Origin: a phage
Length of the DNA: 64,000 nt
Reading direction: 5' to 3' (one strand)
Sequence record: PZ452610.1
Shown: one piece after another, positions 3,689-30,001 of the stretch
Numbering within the stretch: position 1 is the stretch's first letter
How the letters are laid out: each line of letters starts with the position of its first letter
Notes under the pieces: model-generated
Told to the model about the DNA's origin: nothing
What the model saw: only the letters and a program-made list of their open reading frames with translations
Databases searched by the model: none
Position numbers and translations under genes: made by a program

Positions 3689-4108
3689 TTATGCGAAAGC
3701 AGCTGGGCTATATTTTTTAATTTGGAATTCAGGAACTACCATGAACTGTCCAGCGAAAACAATGTTATAAAGCTTAACACCATCTTCTACCCAACGGTCG
3801 CTAATAAATCCGGCGATTTGCTTAGTTTTCCACGGTGTTCCATCAGTTGCCGCAGCAATAGTGAATTCATGGTCTTTTTCAACAGAAACTGATCTGCATA
3901 ATCCCCATTTGAACGCTTTTTCTTCCGGTTCAATGAATTGGCTTTTAACGTAACCAATGTTACCATCAGCGTCACGAACTTTAACTTCGTTACGTCCAAA
4001 AACAGGATCACTCACAGAAAGAACTTCAACCAACTTCCCGGCAACTTTAGAGCGAGAAGCAACAGATACATATACGTAATCACCTGTAGAGAGATTTACA
4101 ATATTCAT
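3689..4108 (-). CDS. Hypothetical protein, 139 aa; member A of a 3-gene tandem paralog family
   Basis: Shares C-terminal motif GFISDRWVEDGVKLYNIVFAGQF with the next two ORFs; SD AAGGAA. Confidence 0.6.
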   Translation of the reverse strand: MNIVNLSTGDYVYVSVASRSKVAGKLVEVLSVSDPVFGRNEVKVRDADGNIGYVKSQFIEPEEKAFKWGLCRSVSVEKDHEFTIAAATDGTPWKTKQIAGFISDRWVEDGVKLYNIVFAGQFMVVPEFQIKKYSPAAFA

Positions 4109-19007: not shown

Positions 19008-20151
19008 GGTCGTTTTCTATATCTGCTGCAGACGGAGCATCAGAAGTTTTAACCGGAACTTTAGTTGTTGCTTTGCAATTAATAAGGTCGTTAACAGCGT
19101 CATCAACTTCTTTAATAGAAGAGATAGCACCTAGTTTATATTTAGTTTCAATTGCATCTCGGAAAGGTTTGTGTTTAAACAAAGGTCCCCAGAATTCTAC
19201 ACAATCGGTAGCTTTAGCACGCCATGATTTCTCTTCACGAATCATTTCGCCTGTTTCTTCGTCAAGGAATTCGCGAGCATACCACCCGGCTTTAGGCTTA
19301 ACAACAAATCCAATTTCAGTTGCCATTTCTAACAAGCCACTGAATGGGTCAATACCGCCATCAAAATTAACCGTGATCGGGAAAGTAGATTTCTCTTTAA
19401 CTGTACGAGATTTTTCCGCTTTCAACGTAAAGTCATAACCGGTCAATTCTGTACCTTCTTTAACCTGACGTTTAGAGATAAAAAATACCGTGTTGGCAGA
19501 ATAAAGAATACCTGTACCACCGCCCATAATCTCTTTAGGATACAATCCGCCGATTTCCATTGCTGTATGGTTGATTGCAACACATGGAATATCTTTAATA
19601 GTCAGATAAGGAGTCACAATGCGGAACAGAGATTTAAGTGCCTTAGCACGAGACATATCACCTACAACTTTCTCGTTCAATGCATCTTCGGTTTCTTTCT
19701 TAGATGCAGTATTACCAATCGAGTCAATAAAGATAATAACTTTATCACCGCGTTCAATAGCGTCAAGCTGATTAGTCATATCAACTTTAAGTTGTTCGAC
19801 AGATTGAATCGGAGTATGAACTACACGGTCTAAATCAACACCCATTGAACGAAAATAAGATTCCGAAGCACCGAATTCTGAGTCATAAAACAAACAGATT
19901 GCATCTTTATATTTCTTCATATACGCTGCAACCATAGTTAGTCCAAACAACGTTTTAAAGTGTTTAGAAGGAGCAGCAAAAATAGTTAAGCCTGATTGCA
20001 ACCCGGCATTCAGTGCACCACCTAATGCAATATTCAACATCGGAATACGAGTAGGGACTTCATCGCGATTATTAAACAGCTTAGACTTAGTCAAGTCTGC
20101 AGTCATTTTAGAAGTAGAAGCTTTAATCAGACGAGATTTTAAATCAGACAT
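18979..20151 (-). CDS. uvsX: UvsX recombinase (RecA-like)
   Basis: 390 aa; RecA-fold ATPase (Walker A in FAAPSKHFKT region); acidic C-terminal tail; T4 position. Confidence 0.95.
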   Translation of the reverse strand: MSDLKSRLIKASTSKMTADLTKSKLFNNRDEVPTRIPMLNIALGGALNAGLQSGLTIFAAPSKHFKTLFGLTMVAAYMKKYKDAICLFYDSEFGASESYFRSMGVDLDRVVHTPIQSVEQLKVDMTNQLDAIERGDKVIIFIDSIGNTASKKETEDALNEKVVGDMSRAKALKSLFRIVTPYLTIKDIPCVAINHTAMEIGGLYPKEIMGGGTGILYSANTVFFISKRQVKEGTELTGYDFTLKAEKSRTVKEKSTFPITVNFDGGIDPFSGLLEMATEIGFVVKPKAGWYAREFLDEETGEMIREEKSWRAKATDCVEFWGPLFKHKPFRDAIETKYKLGAISSIKEVDDAVNDLINCKATTKVPVKTSDAPSAADIENDLDEMEDFDE

Positions 20152-20249
20152 TGTATTTTTCCATAGGCATCATTATATTTTACTCATGTTTAAAAGATAA
20201 GATGATTATATACTAAGGGTTATACAGCATTTAAAACTTTAAATGACTC

Positions 20250-20798
20250 TTAACGAGCCCATTTGATGATTTCTGTAATCAAATCATTACGTTCGCTTGC
20301 ATTAAATCCTATAACTTTGTTAGCACCATCATGATTAAGTAATTGATACGTTTGGATTTTGTTATGAATTGCAAACTCTTCAAAATGTGAAATGACTGTA
20401 TTAAAACCGAATGAAGACAAAGTGATAAGGTCGTCTTCAAAACTTTCAGTCATTTCGTTACGTGTTAAAATAATTGTGAACACATCATGGTTTTGGCAAA
20501 GACGAACATAATCCTGTTCATAAACGTCAAGAACCGAGTCCGCATCTTGTCGAATACGTCCATAAACCCAGTTACTAATATATCCACGGTCTAACAGATA
20601 AATCTTAGTAGGGTCTAAATAATTCAACATCGTTTCGAAACAGCCAACTTCATTTCGAGACTTAACATCGAAACGTCCATCAACTGTTCGTTTAGGGAAA
20701 TCAATCTTTACATATCTTTCACTAATTTCCATTATGTCATTAATGAAAGTTGTTTTACCAGCATTATCCGGGCCATCTACTAAAATAATTTTAGCCAT
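20250..20798 (-). CDS. P-loop nucleotide kinase, thymidylate-kinase-like
   Basis: 182 aa; Walker A GPDNAGKTT and downstream LDRGYISNWVYG resembling the TMK DRY...S motif. Confidence 0.55.
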   Translation of the reverse strand: MAKIILVDGPDNAGKTTFINDIMEISERYVKIDFPKRTVDGRFDVKSRNEVGCFETMLNYLDPTKIYLLDRGYISNWVYGRIRQDADSVLDVYEQDYVRLCQNHDVFTIILTRNEMTESFEDDLITLSSFGFNTVISHFEEFAIHNKIQTYQLLNHDGANKVIGFNASERNDLITEIIKWAR

Positions 20799-20799
20799 T

Positions 20800-21699
20800 T
20801 TATTCCTCGATTACGACATCTTCATATTTAGGTATATTATACGGTGAAGAAATTAAAGCATTAAAGTAGATGAACTCACCAAGACCTGGATGAAATACTT
20901 CTTCAGGATTTTCGAAATATTGAATCTTCGGACGTCCTTTAAGAATTTGATAGTACTCAGTTTTAGTTGGTTTAAAAATTCGAATCAACGCTTCTTCAGG
21001 ATACTTATTTCTGTCGAAGCTATTATTTGGATCGGTTATATAAAGCGGTTGACCTAATTGAATTGCGCATTCAACAACTTGTTCAAAACGATAGCATGGG
21101 TCACTAATTCGAAATGGATGAAAAATACCATCTAGATGAATAGGAGCCAAATCACCTACAAGACGCTGCATGATGGAAGGACGTATAACTTTCTGCGTTA
21201 CGATAATCTTATTACCATCTGCACCTGCGTTAACCAGCACTTCTTTTTGACGTTCATTCAACACAGTAGTTTGAAGTGAACGATTAACCGACAACATATC
21301 AGTTTTTAAGAATTCGTCAATATAAAAACGTGGTTTATTAGGGTCTGCAGTGATATTGAAATTGAATTCCACATCAAAAGCGCCGTCATATCCAGTGATA
21401 TCTGTGATTAAAAAATCACAATCATAATAAGCAATTAATGAATCAACAACAAATTCATTTTCAGACCAGAAATATTTACGAGTGTTATACGCGTTATCTT
21501 TATACCATAATGGAACAAACTTAAATTCTGGAAAAAGACGTTCGCATTCTTTAATATCAGATGCATTACGTGGATATGTAATCACATCACCCGGATTAGC
21601 ACGGTGCAAATGAAGTTGGAAGTTGCCATCCTTAAGGATAGCATACTGTCCAGTTTCATAAGACCGCATACTCAAGATTGGTACGCGGAAAATAGCCAT
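20800..21699 (-). CDS. Hypothetical protein, 299 aa, at the T4 beta-gt position
   Basis: ORF between uvsX and 42 where T4 encodes beta-glucosyltransferase; no similarity to beta-gt recognised. Confidence 0.55.
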   Translation of the reverse strand: MAIFRVPILSMRSYETGQYAILKDGNFQLHLHRANPGDVITYPRNASDIKECERLFPEFKFVPLWYKDNAYNTRKYFWSENEFVVDSLIAYYDCDFLITDITGYDGAFDVEFNFNITADPNKPRFYIDEFLKTDMLSVNRSLQTTVLNERQKEVLVNAGADGNKIIVTQKVIRPSIMQRLVGDLAPIHLDGIFHPFRISDPCYRFEQVVECAIQLGQPLYITDPNNSFDRNKYPEEALIRIFKPTKTEYYQILKGRPKIQYFENPEEVFHPGLGEFIYFNALISSPYNIPKYEDVVIEE

Positions 21700-22415
21700 T
21701 AGTCAAGGAATCCTTTAACATAATCAAAATCACGTTCAAACACATGGGCACTTACCATGGTATGAGTATAATCACCAACTTCTACCCCACATTCGTTAGC
21801 GATATAATGAAGTAATTTTCCTTGGAGATAAAAATCCAACTGCATAACAACAGCACAGTTCTGAGAACGCATATGACAGTGGGTATAAAGCTTACCATCA
21901 CGAATATAATAAGTCACTGAGTCAGTACATGGATATTCAAGCGTTTCGTCCGAATCAAGCAAAGCCTGATCAGAACTTTCTAGAATTTGGAACACAACTC
22001 TTCGAGAGTTAGGCTTCTCTTTAAGTTCTTTTAGAAGAGCTGGTAATTGGGCCGCAATGCGAGGACCATAGAAAGTGTTGAAGTTCGCCGGCAAAACATC
22101 TGATTTTGGTTTAGAAATAAATTTAGCGACATTAGGATATGCCTTAAACGCTTCTTCTGCGTTGGTACCACCAGAAATCATAAACTTCCAGAAGTCTTCG
22201 GCATATTCATAAGAGATGCGGTTAATACGTGGGTCGGTCATTTTGAATGATGATGGAGTGTCAACAACTACTGTCATAGACCCAATTTCATTACAACGTC
22301 CAATACGAGAATCAGTTACGAATTCCGGGTTTTCTAAAATTTCACGATTGACTGCTTTAAATGCGGTTTGAAAATCTGCGGCTTTGATATATTTCATTGT
22401 GTTATGTTTTCCCAT
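21699..22415 (-). CDS. 42: dCMP hydroxymethylase gp42 (thymidylate synthase family)
   Basis: 238 aa; TS-family motifs SRRVVF, active-site PC (EYPCTDS), MRSQN; T4 position. Confidence 0.8.
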   Translation of the reverse strand: MGKHNTMKYIKAADFQTAFKAVNREILENPEFVTDSRIGRCNEIGSMTVVVDTPSSFKMTDPRINRISYEYAEDFWKFMISGGTNAEEAFKAYPNVAKFISKPKSDVLPANFNTFYGPRIAAQLPALLKELKEKPNSRRVVFQILESSDQALLDSDETLEYPCTDSVTYYIRDGKLYTHCHMRSQNCAVVMQLDFYLQGKLLHYIANECGVEVGDYTHTMVSAHVFERDFDYVKGFLD

Positions 22416-22457
22416 GTTTACCTCAATACAATTTATTATATACTCAATTCGTAAAGC

Positions 22458-22697
22458 TTATTTGAATTTCTTGACAATGTTGATATAACGTAAAGCTTCA
22501 GCATCGATACTTCCAAGAACACTATGAAGAAATGCATCAGCGTAGTATTCCAATTGAACAGGTTCTTTAATCACTTTAGCCGCTTTAGTTTCAAACAGGC
22601 CCATCAGGGCCTTTTTAAGAATTTGTTCGTTGCTGTTAATTTTCATAGTCAAAATCTCTTCATTAAGTTGGTGGTTAAAAGTTTTTCTAGAAATCAT
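22458..22697 (-). CDS. Hypothetical protein, 79 aa
   Basis: ORF in operon context. Confidence 0.45.
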   Translation of the reverse strand: MISRKTFNHQLNEEILTMKINSNEQILKKALMGLFETKAAKVIKEPVQLEYYADAFLHSVLGSIDAEALRYINIVKKFK

Positions 22698-23869
22698 TCC
22701 GGGTACCTCAAAGCGTCATCAGAGTTAGTTATATCAATAATAGATATAGAGTTTTCTGCTAACCCGTTTTTAGATAATTGACGTTTATAATATCTTTCAC
22801 AATATGTACACGTCGTCCCGCAGATTTCATTAGCACAATCGAAATCTGGATGTCTGAACCACCTTTTTTCTAAAAAGCCATCTAACAAAGAGGTTTCAAT
22901 ATTTACTGTATGTGAAAACTCAGTTTCGTTTTCAAGAGTGAAAATAGTCTCTAAAGGCTTCCACAGTTCTAACAAATTACCTTCAAACTTTTCAGAAGCG
23001 TATGCTTCAAGAACTTTCAAAATGTAGTCTGTGCTACCTGTACGTCCTGAAACTTTGAATTGAGTGATACCAATATCATTATAAAGTTTCAAATCTTGAG
23101 GACGAACAAAACGAGTTCTCAACCAGTTAAATGGGTCTGTATCACGAGCTTTAATACAGTGCTGCATAGGATATCCGTTTAAGGATTTAGCATCATCAGC
23201 TGTAACATCAGTACTATGGAAAATATAGCAAGAGTCACGATAGCTACAATGTGTTGTATACCCTTTACCAGCATTAGAACAGAACTCATTTACAAGAACT
23301 TCAAATATTATATTGTTCTTATTGCAAAACTCTGCTGCACGCTTCAGGAAAGAAACTGAACGGTTCTTATGAATTCCACAGCAGACCTTTTTGATATTAT
23401 ACTGGTCATGCAAGTATTTGATTTGAGTTACAGCATCGACATGTAGAATTGTTGAAACTTCAATCTCAATGTCTTTATTGACTTCACGAACAATTTCCAT
23501 AACAACAGGGTTAGCGATAGTAATACGCCATACGCCTATTGACCAAAGATACTGAACATAATCCTGAATAGCTTTCTTCTTCCACCCAACTAGTTCTCTT
23601 TTTGAACCAGGATTTATCGTGTTGAGTGTATAGTTAAAGCAAATACCTAATTCGTTACAACGTTTAACGTAATCTTCTAACATCTTTTTGTCAACGTCAG
23701 GAAGCCTAAAATCAGGTCTGGCTGCTACAAAAGCCATTTCTCTTGTAGAGCCGTATACTTCGTTTATCAAGCTATTAGGATAAGTTTTATTGAGCTCTAC
23801 GATTTTATCAAGAAGAGCTAAATCAAAATTCGTTCCAATTTTAAAAGTATTCATTTTTTTGCATCTCAC
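22694..23869 (-). CDS. Hypothetical protein, 391 aa, with C-terminal Cys cluster
   Basis: C-terminal CANEICGTTCTYC (C-x4-C-x3-C-x2-C); family not recognised; sits inside the sugar-nucleotide cassette. Confidence 0.6.
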   Translation of the reverse strand: MRCKKMNTFKIGTNFDLALLDKIVELNKTYPNSLINEVYGSTREMAFVAARPDFRLPDVDKKMLEDYVKRCNELGICFNYTLNTINPGSKRELVGWKKKAIQDYVQYLWSIGVWRITIANPVVMEIVREVNKDIEIEVSTILHVDAVTQIKYLHDQYNIKKVCCGIHKNRSVSFLKRAAEFCNKNNIIFEVLVNEFCSNAGKGYTTHCSYRDSCYIFHSTDVTADDAKSLNGYPMQHCIKARDTDPFNWLRTRFVRPQDLKLYNDIGITQFKVSGRTGSTDYILKVLEAYASEKFEGNLLELWKPLETIFTLENETEFSHTVNIETSLLDGFLEKRWFRHPDFDCANEICGTTCTYCERYYKRQLSKNGLAENSISIIDITNSDDALRYPE

Positions 23870-23910
23870 GTTAATTGATGCGATGGTTTTTGCAGGTCTT
23901 ACTTAAATTA

Positions 23911-24312
23911 TTATAGATTCGGTTTATATGATTTAAATGTTTCGAATTCGCCTTTATTCATAAGAGCTTTGAATTCGTCAGGACGCATAGCTTTGTCGTC
24001 GATAATCCAATCATATACTGGTTTATGTGTTAGCAAATTATGGTACTTCAAACCAATGTTTTCCAAGTTCTGAATCAGACTTGGGAGAATGTCAATTGCT
24101 ATACGACCAGGACCTACTGACTTCATACCGCGAGCAGTGTAAAGCGTTATGGTATGCCCTGCATCATACAGGGCATTAATAGCAGTCACCATTTCGACGT
24201 CTGGTTTGAAGTTCACGTAATCACGATTGTTATTCCACTCTGTTATACAATCATCGACATCAAAACAAAGATTAAGCATGTTTTCTACACGGTGCATTAG
24301 ATTCGTTCCCAT
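23911..24312 (-). CDS. HAD-superfamily phosphatase-like protein, 133 aa
   Basis: N-terminal FDVDDCIT (HAD motif I-like), TLYTARG (motif II), KPVYDWIIDD (motifs III/IV). Confidence 0.6.
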   Translation of the reverse strand: MGTNLMHRVENMLNLCFDVDDCITEWNNNRDYVNFKPDVEMVTAINALYDAGHTITLYTARGMKSVGPGRIAIDILPSLIQNLENIGLKYHNLLTHKPVYDWIIDDKAMRPDEFKALMNKGEFETFKSYKPNL

Positions 24313-25982
24313 TGATGAGTGATATCGCCACCGATTGGACGATAAGAAACACCAGTTTCTTTATCAGTTAGTACCCATTTACCAGGATTTTTTGTAATCA
24401 GAGTAGCCGTTACAGGTTCTGCTACGTCATAACTAATAGAGCCGTCCTGAAGTACACGGCCCATGTTACGTAATTGCTTAGTCAGAAGTTCCATACCTTT
24501 ATAATATGCGGCTACCGCTTTAAGTGGATTATTCTTGAAATAACCACCTAATGCAATCCAGATAATTGCTACAGCCAAATGATGATACTCGTTAAACGAA
24601 CTCATCTTTCCATATTTGTAAACTAATGGATTGATGTTAATAGTCACATTACAAGTTGTTTCGTCAATAGTAAACTGTCCCCAGGTCGGATTAGCGTTGA
24701 ATTCATCATAACCTGAAACAGCATAAAGCACTTTAGCTTCATCATACAATTTTGGCCCGTAAATCTTGGTTTCGCCAAAATATCCACGAGGGTCGATAAA
24801 CTTGACTTCGCCGTTATCAGTAATCATAGTATTACTGAAGTTCGGGTCACCGTGAATAACAGAGTACTGTCCCTGAGAACGGGTATGATAACGAATAAGA
24901 TGTTCTAAAGCTTGCTTCAGCATTGGCTTCAGACGTCCAATCTTAGTGTAGTTCACGTGTGTGATTTTACCAAATGAATCAATCAATGGCTGAATGCTTT
25001 CACAACGATCAATAACTTTCGTATAGAACTCTTTAGTGAAATCACGGCGAACAGTTTCAGGACTTACAAAATAAGTGTCTGTGCTGAATTTCAGTGCATC
25101 TAAAATTGCATCAACAATTTGTGGACGAGCAAGACTTGATTTGGATTTAATATATTCAAATGCTGGCTTACCTTTAATACGTTCCATTTCAAAATTATTT
25201 TCATTTACCGAAACTAACTGAGGAACTGAATCTGATTTCACTTTCAAATACCATGAAATCTCATCTTTTTGAAGAGCTCGACCTTGTTCGGTTAACGCGA
25301 ATTTAGTTACAGTTTCTTCGCCAATTTCAACTGCATTAAAACTACGATTAAGTTCACGAACTTCATGAGCTTTTTCAAGTTTAGGCATATCACCTAAATC
25401 AATTAGATTCATAAGCTCTGATTTATTGAATGCACTGCCGTAAAGGAATTCTACGAAATCACGTCCTTTGCAGTATTCATGAATTTCCTCATCAGTAGAA
25501 CCCATGTAGAATTCCCAGTCTTTGAACTGATAAATTCCTACAACATTACCGCCTGTTGAACCTACGTTAGTGATATTTTCACCATCGAAATTATATCGAC
25601 ATTCATCACCCTTAACATAGATTGCGTTAACATTCCAAGACCATGAACCAAAATCAGGAATAATATCACACCAGTTAACAATTACGTTATGGCCATCTAA
25701 ATCTTTGTATAATTTAGCAAGAGCATAAGCAGAACCATACGCTTCATCAACTGTACGAATAGTCACATTGAACCCTTCTTGCTCGCAATAAGCTCGAACA
25801 GTTTCAGCAAATTTTGAATGAACTACTACAATAATTTCATCTGCGCCAAGGTCAGAATAAATTGTATACAAATTGCTCAGAATAGTGTCTTGTTTATAGT
25901 TAACAAGAACTTTTGGAATATGATGCGTTATTGGATACAAACGAGTTGCCAGTCCAGCACCAAGAATAACAGCTTTTTTCAT
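24297..25982 (-). CDS. Bifunctional sugar-1-phosphate nucleotidyltransferase / APH-type sugar kinase
   Basis: 561 aa; N-terminus KAVILGAGLATRLYPITHHIPKVLV (NTP-transferase G-x-G-x-R-L); C-terminus HGDPNFSNTMITDNGEVKFIDPRGYFG (APH/ChoK catalytic loop). Confidence 0.75.
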   Translation of the reverse strand: MKKAVILGAGLATRLYPITHHIPKVLVNYKQDTILSNLYTIYSDLGADEIIVVVHSKFAETVRAYCEQEGFNVTIRTVDEAYGSAYALAKLYKDLDGHNVIVNWCDIIPDFGSWSWNVNAIYVKGDECRYNFDGENITNVGSTGGNVVGIYQFKDWEFYMGSTDEEIHEYCKGRDFVEFLYGSAFNKSELMNLIDLGDMPKLEKAHEVRELNRSFNAVEIGEETVTKFALTEQGRALQKDEISWYLKVKSDSVPQLVSVNENNFEMERIKGKPAFEYIKSKSSLARPQIVDAILDALKFSTDTYFVSPETVRRDFTKEFYTKVIDRCESIQPLIDSFGKITHVNYTKIGRLKPMLKQALEHLIRYHTRSQGQYSVIHGDPNFSNTMITDNGEVKFIDPRGYFGETKIYGPKLYDEAKVLYAVSGYDEFNANPTWGQFTIDETTCNVTININPLVYKYGKMSSFNEYHHLAVAIIWIALGGYFKNNPLKAVAAYYKGMELLTKQLRNMGRVLQDGSISYDVAEPVTATLITKNPGKWVLTDKETGVSYRPIGGDITHQWERI

Positions 25983-26023
25983 GTTGTGGTCCTCATTGGT
26001 AAGTAGGTGTATTGTACACTATT

Positions 26024-26167
26024 CTAGTTAAAGCATTCATACTTTGCTTGTAGTCCAATCATAATCCATCCAATTACAAGTGTTGGAATCATTACTGGAG
26101 CCGTTAAGCTCCAGTAGATAGTCATGACAAGCATCAATAGTAAAAGTCCTATTGTTATTGCTTTCAT
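26024..26167 (-). CDS. Possible small membrane peptide, 47 aa (not in ORF track)
   Basis: ATG overlaps the TGA of the SIS gene (ATGA coupling); MKAITIGLLLLMLVMTIYW... hydrophobic. Confidence 0.3.
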   Translation of the reverse strand: MKAITIGLLLLMLVMTIYWSLTAPVMIPTLVIGWIMIGLQAKYECFN

Positions 26168-26799
26168 TGTTCGCCTCGTAACATGGCACCTAGTGCACCG
26201 CCTGGATGGAACTTAAGAAAGTCATTAGAGGTAAATCCACGTTCAGACGAAAGGTTGATAGCAAACGTATCGATAAGCGCTAACAACAATGTAGTGGACA
26301 TAGTCGGAGCCAGAGAATTCTCATCAACCTCTACCGCGATGCCTGTACAGAAAGAGTAATCAAAAAGGGCTTCATTTTCTTGCGGAATGTCTGGGTTACA
26401 ATGCAACAGAATCTGTTTGACATTTGGACGAATCATTTTAAGATGCTTAGCCACGCCTATCATTTCTTCAGTCTTACCAGAACGACTAATATGAATCAAC
26501 ACATCATTAGGCGCAATGAATCCTGCATCACCGTGAGAATAATGCCCAGTGTTCAAGTACATACTCGGGATACCGAGTGAAGCAAATGTCTCAGAAGCTT
26601 TAGTTGCAATATTAGCATTCTTACCAACACCTGTAATAATTACTCGGCTTTCATAATTACTAAGTCCAGGGCGTCGAAGAGTTTCTAGAATAGCATTATA
26701 ACGAGCAGGGTTTTGACTAATTACTTTGGCCATAGCGGCCAAAGAAGAAGCTTGTTTTATGATTGCGTCAATAGCGATAGTAATAGGAGTAGTTTTCAT
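26164..26799 (-). CDS. Arabinose-5-phosphate isomerase-like SIS-domain protein (KdsD/GutQ type, no CBS domains)
   Basis: 211 aa; VIITGVGKNANIATKASETFASLGIPS...HGD...HISRSGKT and C-terminal HPGGALG parallel the E. coli KdsD SIS domain. Confidence 0.8.
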   Translation of the reverse strand: MKTTPITIAIDAIIKQASSLAAMAKVISQNPARYNAILETLRRPGLSNYESRVIITGVGKNANIATKASETFASLGIPSMYLNTGHYSHGDAGFIAPNDVLIHISRSGKTEEMIGVAKHLKMIRPNVKQILLHCNPDIPQENEALFDYSFCTGIAVEVDENSLAPTMSTTLLLALIDTFAINLSSERGFTSNDFLKFHPGGALGAMLRGEQ

Positions 26800-26839
26800 A
26801 TTTCTCTCATTTAATTAGTTTACCGTCCATGACATTATA

Positions 26840-29551
26840 TCAAAAATCGAACATATCGAACAGAGATGCTTTCTTCTCGTAATCGAGTTTCGCTGCTGAT
26901 GTGAATCCTTCAAGTGGTTTAATAAATGTCTTCTCAAGGAGAACAGTGTAGTCCATCCAATGAAGTACGTCATCTTTAATTAAATCTGTGATTTCAGTAC
27001 CAGAAGGCCATGCGATACATTTATCACCGAACGGGTTTCCTTCACGTAAAGGCAGAACATATACTTTTTCACCTTCTACAACTTGTGGAGCATCAATATT
27101 ACCTTTGATAGCTCTGTTATATGTCAGAATTCCACGAATATGGAACGGACATTTAGGACCAGGGAATCCACCTACATCATATTTAGCAATGTTATTCGCA
27201 GAAGATACCGACGCGATGCTAATATAATTCAATTGACGGAATTCTTTTTCAAACTCTTTAAAATATTCTTGTAATGATTCTTCACCTTCTTGAAGCATAC
27301 GACGAATACATTCTTTAAGAGCTTTCTGTACTGCTTTAGGGGTCGAAGATTTCTGAGTCTCTAGACCCATGATTTTGAGTTTAGGCTCAGCGTAACGAGT
27401 ACCTTCCATATCCCACACGTTTAATGCGTAACGTTTCTTACCAGTCCAGAATCCACCAATACCTTTAGAACCGAGCGGAGGACCAGCGATAGCTTCTCGG
27501 TCCATGAACATTAAGTGTTGTTTATTGTTCATGTATTCACACATTTCACGGAAACCTCTATCAATAGCAGGTTCCATACGTTCACGAGCGAACTTATCTA
27601 AGAAGTCTACCCAATGGTTGGTATCACGGAATTTAGATTCACCAACCTTATCGATAATTTTATCAGCAGATACGTAAATAGAGTCTGTATCACCATAAAG
27701 AACGAAAGCTTCACCTTCTGTACCACAAACTTCGTTCAGATATTCATTAACTTTACGTTCAATCCACTGTAAAGCCATTTGACCAAATGTTGTGATTGCA
27801 GTAGCATTACGCAAATCGTAATAACGGAACCAAACGTTGCCAAGTGCACCATAAAGTGAGTTGATAAGCAATTTACGGTTAATTTGTGCAGTCATACCTG
27901 CAACTTCAGTACGTTGAGCTCTAAACAACATTTCATTAAGAGATTTAGCAGACAACTTTTTAATCTTTTCTTTAATCTCGTCAGTGAAGTCGAAACGATA
28001 ATCAACATCTAATGGTTCGTCAACAGAAAGATTAGGATTATGCAACGCCTCTTTAATTATTTCACCATTACGTTGAGCCGCAAGCATATAACCTTTATGT
28101 TCTTTACGTTGATTAAAGACCTTAGTGATTTCAGTTGGAACTACACCATCACGGTCTTTATAATACATCATGCCATTAGGAGAACAACTGTACACATCTG
28201 AAGGACGTTCAGCGATTGCGTTAATATAATCATGCAGTGGAGCTACTTTAAACGTTCCTGCTATTGTTTCCGGGCTAATATTCACTTGGCGAATAATACT
28301 TGGATACAGAGATGTAAGGTCGAAACTCATTACATATTTGTATCGATTTGGAATAGGTTCCTTAACAAAAGCGCCAGGATAAGGTTGAACCGGGTGAGAA
28401 CGACCTTGTGGAATCACCTTGTTCTGCTCTTTAAGGCTATTAAAAATAATAGCATCCCATGTTTTAATTGGGCTAAACACAGATTGAATCTGTATCTTAG
28501 CATAATAACCCATGTCCAAACTCAAGTTGATGAACTGACGCTTAGCATCAATTTGCAATACACGATACACGTCGATAATGTTATAAGAAATATATCGTTG
28601 GTGATTGCTTTCACGAAGCTTAGAAATAGGGCCGTCATATTTCAGTTTACCAACGTTCAATTCAAATTCTGAAATGTAATCTAGAGAATACGACGGTTGA
28701 TTGGTAAAAGAGAATTTTTTGTAAAGGTCGATATAATCAAGAACAGAGATACCGAACAATGTAATGATTTCACGAGAACCATACATGTTTTCGATAACTT
28801 TAACACGAGTTTTACGATGCGGTGATAAACGTTTCGCAGTAGATTCGCCAAAAATATTCTTGATTCGGTTATACACATATGGAATATCAAATGACTCAAC
28901 GTTCCATCCAGTCAAAATGACAGGAGTTTTCTGTTGCCAGAAGTTGAGATATTCCATCAACAATTCTTTTTCGTTATCGAACGGCATATAAATGATTTTA
29001 TCGATAATTTCAGATGGAACTTCATCACCGCCTTGTTCTTGAAGCTTAGCAGCGATTTCAATAGACCATTCTTCTACATTACCATATGGAGAATTCAATA
29101 GATCAAATACGTAGAACCTGTCGTCAATTGAGTCATAATGGGTGATAGCATCAATCGGATGTTTTGCTTGTGATGGCTCAGGGAACCCATCCGGAGATGT
29201 TACTTCGATGTCGAAGTTAGCCACACGAATTTTTGTATGGTCGTATTTGATTTCATAGTTATAAGTGTCAGACAAATACGCCAATTTGAAATCGTCCATG
29301 CCAAGTGCTTCAAGTCCGATATCTTCCATGCGTTTAATCCATTGGGAGGCATCACGCATATTAGCGAACAACTTACGAGTACACGGCTTACCGTAGATAT
29401 CGAAATATTTCGTAGCCTGACTTTCCGGACAATGAGCAAACAGTGATGGTTTATATTCTACTTCACGAGTACGTTCACGGCCATTAGAATCGATGTAACG
29501 TTCAAAAATTGAATCACCAATCTGTTCAACCGTTAAGTAAAATTCTTTCAT
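26840..29551 (-). CDS. 43: DNA polymerase gp43 (family B); matches RB69 gp43 from memory
   Basis: 903 aa; N-terminus MKEFYLTVEQIGDSIFERYIDSNGRERTREVEYKPSLFAHCP..., exo motif FDIEV, pol motifs DTDS and KKRY. Confidence 0.98.
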   Translation of the reverse strand: MKEFYLTVEQIGDSIFERYIDSNGRERTREVEYKPSLFAHCPESQATKYFDIYGKPCTRKLFANMRDASQWIKRMEDIGLEALGMDDFKLAYLSDTYNYEIKYDHTKIRVANFDIEVTSPDGFPEPSQAKHPIDAITHYDSIDDRFYVFDLLNSPYGNVEEWSIEIAAKLQEQGGDEVPSEIIDKIIYMPFDNEKELLMEYLNFWQQKTPVILTGWNVESFDIPYVYNRIKNIFGESTAKRLSPHRKTRVKVIENMYGSREIITLFGISVLDYIDLYKKFSFTNQPSYSLDYISEFELNVGKLKYDGPISKLRESNHQRYISYNIIDVYRVLQIDAKRQFINLSLDMGYYAKIQIQSVFSPIKTWDAIIFNSLKEQNKVIPQGRSHPVQPYPGAFVKEPIPNRYKYVMSFDLTSLYPSIIRQVNISPETIAGTFKVAPLHDYINAIAERPSDVYSCSPNGMMYYKDRDGVVPTEITKVFNQRKEHKGYMLAAQRNGEIIKEALHNPNLSVDEPLDVDYRFDFTDEIKEKIKKLSAKSLNEMLFRAQRTEVAGMTAQINRKLLINSLYGALGNVWFRYYDLRNATAITTFGQMALQWIERKVNEYLNEVCGTEGEAFVLYGDTDSIYVSADKIIDKVGESKFRDTNHWVDFLDKFARERMEPAIDRGFREMCEYMNNKQHLMFMDREAIAGPPLGSKGIGGFWTGKKRYALNVWDMEGTRYAEPKLKIMGLETQKSSTPKAVQKALKECIRRMLQEGEESLQEYFKEFEKEFRQLNYISIASVSSANNIAKYDVGGFPGPKCPFHIRGILTYNRAIKGNIDAPQVVEGEKVYVLPLREGNPFGDKCIAWPSGTEITDLIKDDVLHWMDYTVLLEKTFIKPLEGFTSAAKLDYEKKASLFDMFDF

Positions 29552-29562
29552 TTAATTTCCTT

Positions 29563-29578
29563 TAGACGAGTTATTGTC
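29563..29578 (-). promoter_or_regulatory. Candidate gene 43 translational operator hairpin
   Basis: Minus strand AGAC-AATAACTC-GTCT (4-bp stem, 8-nt loop) directly abutting SD AAAGGAAA and the gp43 ATG. Confidence 0.5.
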
Positions 29579-29600
29579 TTTTGTTTGTTGATGAACTTAT

Positions 29601-29626
29601 TATACTCCAAATGGGACCGAAGTCCC
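29601..29626 (-). terminator. Hairpin ATGGGAC-TTCG-GTCCCAT after regA
   Basis: 7-bp stem with UUCG loop; weak T tail. Confidence 0.4.
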
Positions 29627-29632
29627 ATTGCT

Positions 29633-30001
29633 TTAATTACCAATTGTATATTTTGCTTTCAAAGTCCAGTCATCTTTCTGTTTAAAAGAGATAACACGGA
29701 AGTTATTAGTCAGGCCAAACAGATCTTCACGAGCAGAGTCTTCAATAACAATCAATCCCCAGTCTTCAAGCAACTGAGCAATCGAATCACGTCGCTGATA
29801 GTCTTCACCATCAATATCAACCTGACGTCCGTCCATACGCAGCATTTCTTTAAAGTGGACGATGTAATATTTACCTTGCTTTTGGAGGATATGACAAGAC
29901 TGGTAAAGGACTTTATCCTTGTTATTAGCGATGCCCATACGGGTTAGAGTCTCTTTGACTTTCAGAAAATCTTCAGGGTTCTTCAATTTAATTTCAATCA
30001 T
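29633..30001 (-). CDS. regA: Translational repressor RegA
   Basis: MIEIKLKNPEDFLKVKETLTRMGIANNKDKVLYQSCHILQK... closely matches T4 RegA; start at internal Met of track ORF. Confidence 0.9.
   Translation of the reverse strand: MIEIKLKNPEDFLKVKETLTRMGIANNKDKVLYQSCHILQKQGKYYIVHFKEMLRMDGRQVDIDGEDYQRRDSIAQLLEDWGLIVIEDSAREDLFGLTNNFRVISFKQKDDWTLKAKYTIGN

Follow-up and report, generated by a model that had tools for sequence, protein, structure and literature searches.

A single-SIS-domain homologue of D-arabinose-5-phosphate isomerases linked to the DNA-modification genes of an RB69-type phage

Why a phage should carry its own homologue of a bacterial sugar-phosphate isomerase, and where the pentose phosphate formed by such an enzyme would be used, is the question raised by this locus. 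The window analysed here is the whole 64,000-nucleotide stretch of phage DNA in record PZ452610.1, and the gene under study is the following:

26164..26799, minus strand: single-SIS-domain D-arabinose-5-phosphate isomerase homologue (RB69 gp55/ORF055c orthologue), assigned by its SIS domain, profile matches and fold

A preliminary description, made from the sequence alone, had read this gene as a KdsD-like arabinose-5-phosphate (A5P) isomerase ending before the CBS domains. Over the 3.1 kb surrounding the gene, the sequence matches E. coli O157 typing phages 3, 6 and 13 at 100% identity and RB69 at 98.2%, which identifies the window as coming from a Mosigvirus (an RB69-type, T4-like phage). 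The encoded protein is 100% identical to its RB69 orthologue over residues 18-211. Based on homology, fold, active-site residues and gene linkage, we consider with a probability of about 0.85 that the gene encodes a stand-alone A5P isomerase feeding D-arabinofuranose (D-Araf) to DNA arabinosylation.

Publications (2018, 2026) and databases already contain the gene, its annotation and the role proposed for it, so the isomerase finding brings no new biology. The typing-phage records carry the GenBank label "kpsF: arabinose 5-phosphate isomerase", and the RB69 name is RB69p055/ORF055c. Arabinose was found on RB69 DNA, with ORF055c and ORF53_52c proposed as UDP-arabinose genes (Thomas et al. 2018, PMC6024577), and in a Butyrivibrio protein an ORF53_52c-like region is joined to a C-terminal SIS domain that is a homologue of ORF055c (PMC6024577). 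Mono- and di-D-arabinofuranosyl-5-hydroxycytosine were subsequently described on RB69 DNA (Lee et al. 2026, PMC13326640), the sugar on 5-hydroxycytosine (5hoC) being alpha/beta-D-Araf (PMC13326640). Arabinosylated 5hoC in virion DNA is documented for RB69 by LC-MS and NMR (PMC13326640) and for Mosigvirus NP (PMC13390438).

Family and active site of the isomerase homologue

The open reading frame starts with ATG and encodes 211 amino acids. A motif check of the translation places VIITGVGKNANIATKASETFASLGIPS at residues 53-79, HGD at 89-91, ISRSG at 104-108 and HPGGALG at 198-204, and every motif listed in the preliminary description is present. Alignment to E. coli K-12 KdsD, a check that this description had proposed, gives 36% identity across the SIS domain (KdsD residues 23-202, E = 1e-33 in BLASTP), a similarity far above chance. 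The phage protein ends 7 residues past HPGGALG, and KdsD extends to residue 328. Pfam detects one SIS domain (1e-10, above cut-off) and no CBS domain in the 211 residues; with the stop at residue 211, the earlier claim of an ending before the CBS domains holds. The missing CBS region is real and not new, CBS-less isomerases being an established subclass (3etn, 5uqi).

The top NCBIfam profiles are KpsF/GutQ TIGR00393 (2e-32), KdsD (7e-31) and GutQ (9e-23), followed by other SIS families at 1e-6 or weaker. No GmhA profile matches at E <= 0.01, and no HxlB or GlmS profile of NCBIfam competes. The scores lie under the curated cut-offs (112.9 vs 203.7 bits for TIGR00393, 107.7 vs 505 for KdsD) because these models include the CBS half, with only positions 47-202 of the 328 in the KdsD model being covered by the phage protein. 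Formally, its sequence would not qualify it as a full-length member of KdsD/GutQ/KpsF. In PHROG, the match is to phrog_5670, 'arabinose 5-phosphate isomerase' (E = 4e-116).

Structural comparison gives a similar ranking. Sequence matches in the PDB are led by 3etn (2.6e-25, 92 bits; chain of 220 aa) and 5uqi (4.1e-23, 85 bits; 198 aa), followed by 2xhz (3.5e-19, 72 bits) and 3fxa (54 bits). An AlphaFold2 model, computed from a 41-sequence alignment, has a pLDDT of 94.4 and a pTM of 0.90. Its best Foldseek matches are 2xhz (TMt 0.90), 3etn and 5uqi, the last two falling in the top five with TM values of 0.79-0.89; 5uqi bears the title 'E. coli CFT073 c3406 in complex with A5P'. The first GmhA structure appears at rank 49 with a TMq of 0.55, behind three arabinose-5-phosphate isomerase structures. 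A lead for GmhA or another SIS family, named in the preliminary description as contrary evidence, was thus looked for and not found among profiles or folds, where KpsF/GutQ/KdsD lead.

The active-site residues of KdsD, which we take to be K59, H88, E111, E152 and H193, align with K60, H89, E112, E157 and H198 of the phage protein. These five residues are invariant in alignments of 17 and 41 sequences, down to 40% identity. In 2xhz, titled 'Probing the active site...', alanine occupies the position of wild-type KdsD K59, corroborating this lysine as an active-site position. Best profiles, best folds and a conserved active site together support the reading of a KdsD-like A5P isomerase, and we infer isomerase activity for this phage protein from its sequence.

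Gene block downstream of gene 43 and the proposed pathway

The isomerase homologue is the first gene of a tightly packed minus-strand block spanning 20250..26799. The gene upstream of it and the remaining members of the block are as follows:

26840..29551, minus strand: T4-type DNA polymerase gp43, directly upstream and 40 nt from the isomerase
26024..26167, minus strand: 47-aa hydrophobic ORF (RB69 gp54 region); phrog_3610 (6.8e-27), 'unknown function'; 100% identical in RB69
24297..25982, minus strand: AfhE-like bifunctional enzyme of 561 aa (RB69 gp52:53); NTP_transferase domain and weak kinase-family matches; 99-100% RB69 identity
23911..24297, minus strand: AfhF-like HAD phosphatase (RB69 gp51); TIGR01689 EcbF/BcbF capsule biosynthesis phosphatase (2e-13); phrog_1238
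22694..23869, minus strand: Peptidase_U32-family protein (RB69 gp50); Pfam PF01136 (7.5e-11); weak UbiU match
22458..22697, minus strand: 79-aa ORF (RB69 gp49); homologues only in Mosigvirus, some truncated
21699..22415, minus strand: ThyA-like 5-hydroxy-dCMP (5hodCMP) synthase (RB69 gp48); Thymidylat_synt (2.3e-15); 99.2% identical to gp48
20800..21699, minus strand: putative first DNA arabinosyltransferase of 299 aa (RB69 gp46:47); 99-100% RB69 identity; assignment from PMC13326640
20250..20798, minus strand: thymidylate-kinase-like nucleotide kinase (RB69 gp45); 99.5% RB69 identity; weak dTMP kinase match; PMC13326640, Table 1

The module proteins are each 97-100% identical to their RB69 counterparts, and gp46:47 and gp52:53 are intact single ORFs here, unlike in the old RB69 record. 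A terminator scan found no minus-strand terminator-like site between gene 43 and the module, no MotA-box pattern occurs upstream of the isomerase gene, and a promoter scan of positions 20000-30000 returned 33 promoter-like sites where 37 would arise by chance. The ATG of the 47-aa ORF overlaps the isomerase stop codon (ATGA); this ORF is matched in neither the Acj9 nor the PAU locus, and its match in Klebsiella phage Kpn BM7 is non-significant (E 0.059). The AfhE-like enzyme consists of an N-terminal sugar-1-phosphate nucleotidyltransferase and a C-terminal kinase. For the phosphatase, the TAATG overlap with the upstream stop suggests a start at 24297, although the open frame reaches 24312; public records mislabel this phosphatase as 'phosphoheptose isomerase'. 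The first arabinosyltransferase (299 aa) has no Pfam match. The second arabinosyltransferase, RB69 gp3, is not in the window, which begins at RB69 position 3742, just past gp3.

The published proposal for UDP-Araf synthesis runs from gp55 (D-ribulose-5-phosphate to Araf5P) through gp52:53, likened to AfhE of HY126, and gp51, likened to AfhF (PMC13326640). The AfhE-like enzyme is assigned two steps, Ara5P to Araf-1,5-P2 and Araf-1-P to UDP-Araf, and the AfhF-like phosphatase the step between, Araf-1,5-P2 to Araf-1-P (PMC13326640). In Table 1 of that study the formation of 5-hydroxy-dCMP by gp48 is experimentally confirmed, and the gp55 step is a computational proposal that is not flagged as confirmed (PMC13326640). 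The need for additional pentose phosphate inferred in the preliminary description fits this pathway, phage DNA carrying arabinosyl-5-hydroxycytosine being the destination of the sugar.

Applied to the present locus, the isomerase would convert D-ribulose-5-phosphate from the host pentose-phosphate pathway into D-arabinose-5-phosphate, whose C5 phosphate would permit only furanose ring closure. The cyclisation of a 5-phosphorylated pentose as furanose only may, in our own interpretation, be a chemical reason for a pathway that starts at A5P. The AfhE-like enzyme would then phosphorylate C1, the AfhF-like phosphatase would remove the 5-phosphate, and the AfhE-like enzyme would make UDP-D-arabinofuranose. 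The phage arabinosyltransferases would put D-Araf on the 5hoC that replaces cytosine in phage DNA, and the arabinosylated DNA would be protected from host nucleases. The gene marks phages that make their own activated D-arabinofuranose for DNA hypermodification. Whether a phage resists restriction enzymes and CRISPR, and how sensitive it is to type IV systems such as GmrSD/BrxU, depends on arabinosylation of its DNA, a trait that matters in the choice of therapeutic phages.

A separate observation concerns the U32 protein of the block, for which PMC13326640 has a single entry, "Sugar or heterocycle reductase", and does not refer to U32, chorismate or prephenate. The U32 proteins RlhA, TrhP and UbiU/V act in hydroxylations that do not require O2; 5-hydroxycytidine in 23S rRNA depends on RlhA, and prephenate is the oxygen donor of UbiU/V (PMC5727448, PMC6599085, PMC10990095). 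Related phages encode a type II chorismate mutase, a prephenate-making enzyme, beside the U32 gene (Pfam 46.8 and 37.3 bits, above cut-off). In Proteus phage PM2 and Kpn BM7 the mutase gene separates the U32 gene from that of the 5hoC synthase, and in Shewanella phage Thanatos-2 it immediately follows the U32 gene. For the phage chorismate mutase, 52 phage records spanning about 12 host genera were found; of the 25 rows listed, 19 have thymidylate synthase and/or peptidase named in the annotation under the match. Kpn BM7 also encodes a DAHP synthase. The U32 gene itself is found in 222 records at at least 80% identity, the matches listed all being from Enterobacterales or Shewanella phages; those listed include no Acinetobacter phage, against 57 Acinetobacter records with the isomerase.

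Because U32 relatives hydroxylate without O2, a chorismate mutase gene adjoins the U32 gene in related phages, and the published 5hodCMP synthase requires O2 according to the literature, the gene neighbourhood suggests that the U32 protein may give or support a prephenate-dependent, O2-independent route to 5-hydroxycytosine under anoxia. Only one of the four Fe-S cysteines of UbiU aligns on the phage U32 protein, and BLASTP comparisons of that protein with UbiU, UbiV, TrhP and RlhA are not significant. Thirteen cysteines, including two four-cysteine groups, are conserved among the phage U32 proteins. In the window, the 79-aa gp49 fills the slot held by the chorismate mutase in related phages. 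Its reading as a diverged chorismate mutase was considered and rejected, since it has no Pfam match, no similarity to phage chorismate mutases and homologues in Mosigvirus only.

Distribution of the isomerase and alternative readings

The linkage of the isomerase to the pathway genes extends beyond Mosigvirus. In Acinetobacter phage Acj9, the isomerase adjoins orthologues of the AfhE-like enzyme, phosphatase, 5hoC synthase, transferase and nucleotide kinase, and in the unrelated jumbo phage PAU an isomerase homologue lies two genes from an AfhE-like gene. Other phages have the module without this gene. Kpn BM7 keeps the AfhE-like enzyme (43% identity), phosphatase (67%), nucleotide kinase, U32 protein (86%), 5hoC synthase (78%) and first transferase (69%), and its whole genome contains no match (E <= 1) to the phage isomerase, E. 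coli KdsD or gp3. At E <= 1, neither the isomerase nor a KdsD homologue was found in the whole genome of Thanatos-2 or in the locus of Proteus phage PM2, the rest of the module being present in both. The isomerase is an accessory, non-universal part of the module, an observation that is new here. Since KdsD and GutQ are present in the host, and the module occurs without the isomerase in some phages, the isomerase is not essential to the chemistry.

The gp3-type second transferase is confined to Escherichia/Shigella Mosigviruses and Acinetobacter phages. Record counts for gp3 and the isomerase nearly coincide, at 137/137 in Escherichia phages, 13/14 in Shigella phages and 55/57 in Acinetobacter phages. 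Escherichia, Shigella and Acinetobacter phages, the lineages in which a second or third arabinosyltransferase occurs, are also the main carriers of the isomerase. Thanatos-2 and Kpn BM7, which lack the isomerase, have the first transferase only; in the literature, Thanatos is mono-arabinosylated with a single transferase. A strict rule equating the isomerase with poly-arabinosylation was rejected, as the isomerase also occurs in Serratia, Yersinia and Enterobacter phages, which lack the gp3-type transferase, making the link between isomerase and chain length one-directional only.

The demand for arabinose was estimated from about 62,800 cytosines per genome with 1.0-1.8 arabinose each; assuming a burst of 100-200, a textbook-level figure, this corresponds to ~0.6-2.3e7 arabinose units per cell. 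The production of Kdo amounts to ~2-4e6 per cell per generation. As a rough comparison, the arabinose demand is several-fold the Kdo made per cell per generation. The most economical reading is that the isomerase would boost flux on top of host KdsD/GutQ. A further suggestion, offered tentatively and at less than even odds, is that it may be no redundant copy of host KdsD but a demand-matched, unregulated (CBS-less) flux booster setting how heavily the DNA can be arabinosylated. If so, loss of the gene would shift di- to mono-arabinosyl-5hoC or reduce the burst with the modification kept, and would change sensitivity to modification-dependent defences.

The absence of the isomerase from phages that still have the arabinosylation module also fits an SIS isomerase acting on another sugar phosphate (G6P/F6P or heptose phosphate), with A5P supplied by host KdsD/GutQ. 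The substrate range of single-SIS proteins is not uniform: Listeria 3fxa, which falls in the same fold cluster, is presumably a glucose-6-phosphate isomerase, so that specificity among single-SIS proteins is not guaranteed. The isomerases that are proven or bound to A5P nevertheless outscore 3fxa (92, 85 and 72 vs 54 bits), the five KdsD active-site positions are invariant, and the GmhA, HxlB and GlmS profiles do not compete; no other pentose or hexose is reported on RB69 DNA (PMC13326640). This reading is therefore considered unlikely. RpiR-type SIS domains among the weaker profile and fold matches raise the thought of a non-catalytic, sugar-phosphate-binding sensor or regulator, comparable to the effector domains of RpiR, MurR or NanR. 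Such a role is extremely improbable, given that Pfam detects no DNA-binding domain, that the phage family shows no variation at the catalytic Lys, His and Glu positions, and that the fold matches to regulators are at least five orders of magnitude weaker than those to isomerases.

The remaining alternative accepts the predicted reaction and differs in the destination of the product, with the gene acting as a KpsF-like auxiliary metabolic gene that provides A5P for Kdo and hence for host LPS or capsule synthesis during infection. The classical role of the family lies in Kdo, LPS and capsule synthesis, the RB69 record notes a similarity of the gene to 'polysialic acid capsular expression protein GutQ', and the neighbouring phosphatase matches a family of 'capsule biosynthesis phosphatase'. 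However, the gene is located inside a DNA-modification module, by a 5hodCMP synthase and a DNA arabinosyltransferase, and the annotation of the RB69 neighbourhood includes no gene of the Kdo pathway. RB69 DNA carries D-Araf as its sugar, and the isomerase accompanies an AfhE-like enzyme even in the unrelated PAU, leaving a supply of Kdo very unlikely as the purpose of the gene.

Comparison with known systems

The closest known system is RB69 gp55/ORF055c (NP_861745.1), which is effectively the same protein in the same place after gene 43 and with the same downstream module; its orthologues include gp83 of Acinetobacter phage DLP3 and the members of PHROG 5670. Bacteroides fragilis 3etn and E. 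coli CFT073 c3406 (5uqi), which we take to be proven arabinose-5-phosphate isomerases from Woodard-lab work, are likewise about 200 aa long and SIS only, with the HPGGALG-type C-terminus aligned and about 30% identity to the phage protein. They come from capsule or genomic-island contexts, whereas the phage isomerase belongs to a putative nucleotide-sugar pathway for DNA modification.

E. coli KdsD, GutQ and KpsF have the same predicted reaction, sharing the SIS domain and the five active-site positions with the phage protein, but possess a tandem CBS region of about 120 residues that the phage protein lacks. Their product leads to Kdo, whereas that of the phage isomerase is proposed to lead to UDP-Araf. 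Listeria monocytogenes lmof2365_0531 (3fxa), GmhA and RpiR/MurR have the same SIS fold with markedly weaker matches, and their substrates are different or their roles non-catalytic. At the level of the pathway, the locus corresponds to the 'Afh' type of RB69, DLP3 and HY126, all linked genes being found here within 20250..26799 on one strand.

Modules complete except for the isomerase

The module is otherwise complete in Klebsiella phage Kpn BM7, Shewanella phage Thanatos-2 and Proteus phage PM2, encompassing the AfhE-like protein, phosphatase, 5-hydroxycytosine (5hoC) synthase, first transferase, nucleotide kinase and U32 protein. No homologue of the isomerase or KdsD was detected genome-wide in Kpn BM7 (L008-L011) or Thanatos-2 (L015-L018) at E <= 1, nor at the PM2 locus (L007), and a gp3-type second arabinosyltransferase was likewise absent from both whole genomes and the PM2 locus. 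These three phages presumably draw arabinose-5-phosphate from the host KdsD/GutQ.

Reading frames around the isomerase

On its minus strand, the window has one intact ORF of 299 aa (20800..21699) for the gene that the old RB69 record divides into ORF046/047, and one of 561 aa (24297..25982) for the gene it divides into ORF052/053. The published claim that these splits are sequencing errors is independently supported here, since both genes are intact. Two smaller genes of the module also merit description:

26024..26167, minus strand: strongly hydrophobic 47-aa ORF, its start overlapping the isomerase stop
23911..24312, minus strand: small HAD-type phosphatase (RB69 gp51, AfhF-like; NCBIfam EcbF/BcbF)

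The ATG of the 47-aa ORF is shared with the isomerase stop codon (ATGA), an overlap suggesting that the two genes are translationally coupled. This ORF matches phrog_3610, labelled as of unknown function, and its RB69 counterpart is 100% conserved, being annotated there as a shorter 36-aa version. No match was found at the loci of Acinetobacter phage Acj9 or the unrelated jumbo phage PAU, and only a non-significant one in Kpn BM7.

RefSeq phage records and PHROG 1238 name the gp51-type phosphatase "phosphoheptose isomerase". This public label looks wrong, because the protein's NCBIfam match is to capsule biosynthesis phosphatases of the EcbF/BcbF type, and RB69 gp51 is treated as a phosphatase in the literature (PMC13326640). 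A TAATG overlap suggests 24297 as the true start, giving 128 aa.

The U32 gene and a candidate anaerobic route to 5-hydroxycytosine

22694..23869, minus strand: Peptidase_U32-family gene (RB69 gp50), a module member
22458..22697, minus strand: 79-aa ORF (RB69 gp49), at the position of chorismate mutase in other genera
L007 7013..10196: U32/chorismate mutase comparison locus, PM2
L006 7001..9095: U32/chorismate mutase comparison locus, Kpn BM7
L015 12001..13391: U32/chorismate mutase comparison locus, Thanatos-2

In PM2 and Kpn BM7, the latter also encoding DAHP synthase, a type II chorismate mutase gene is flanked by those for the U32 protein and 5hoC synthase; in Thanatos-2 it immediately follows the U32 gene. 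This mutase was found in 52 phage records spanning about 12 host genera. The gp49-type ORF, which has no detectable similarity to the phage mutase, occurs in Mosigvirus only and is shortened to truncated forms of 47-58 aa in some relatives; it may have replaced the mutase gene or be undergoing decay.

The U32 proteins RlhA, TrhP and UbiU/V are O2-independent hydroxylation factors linked to prephenate (PMC5727448, PMC6599085, PMC10990095), and by analogy with these family members the phage U32 protein and mutase may constitute an anaerobic route to 5-hydroxycytosine. Such a route is not discussed in the RB69 paper (PMC13326640). Phages of Acinetobacter, a strict aerobe, that carry the remaining pathway genes have no U32 gene (none among 222 U32 records).

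The phage U32 protein carries a C-terminal C-x4-C-x3-C-x2-C cluster (residues 345-357, ICGTTCTYC), kept in the homologues from phages of Escherichia, Klebsiella and Proteus, and a second, mid-protein group of four cysteines. Together, these groups suggest two metal or Fe-S sites, whose putative layout appears to differ from that of UbiU, TrhP and RlhA.
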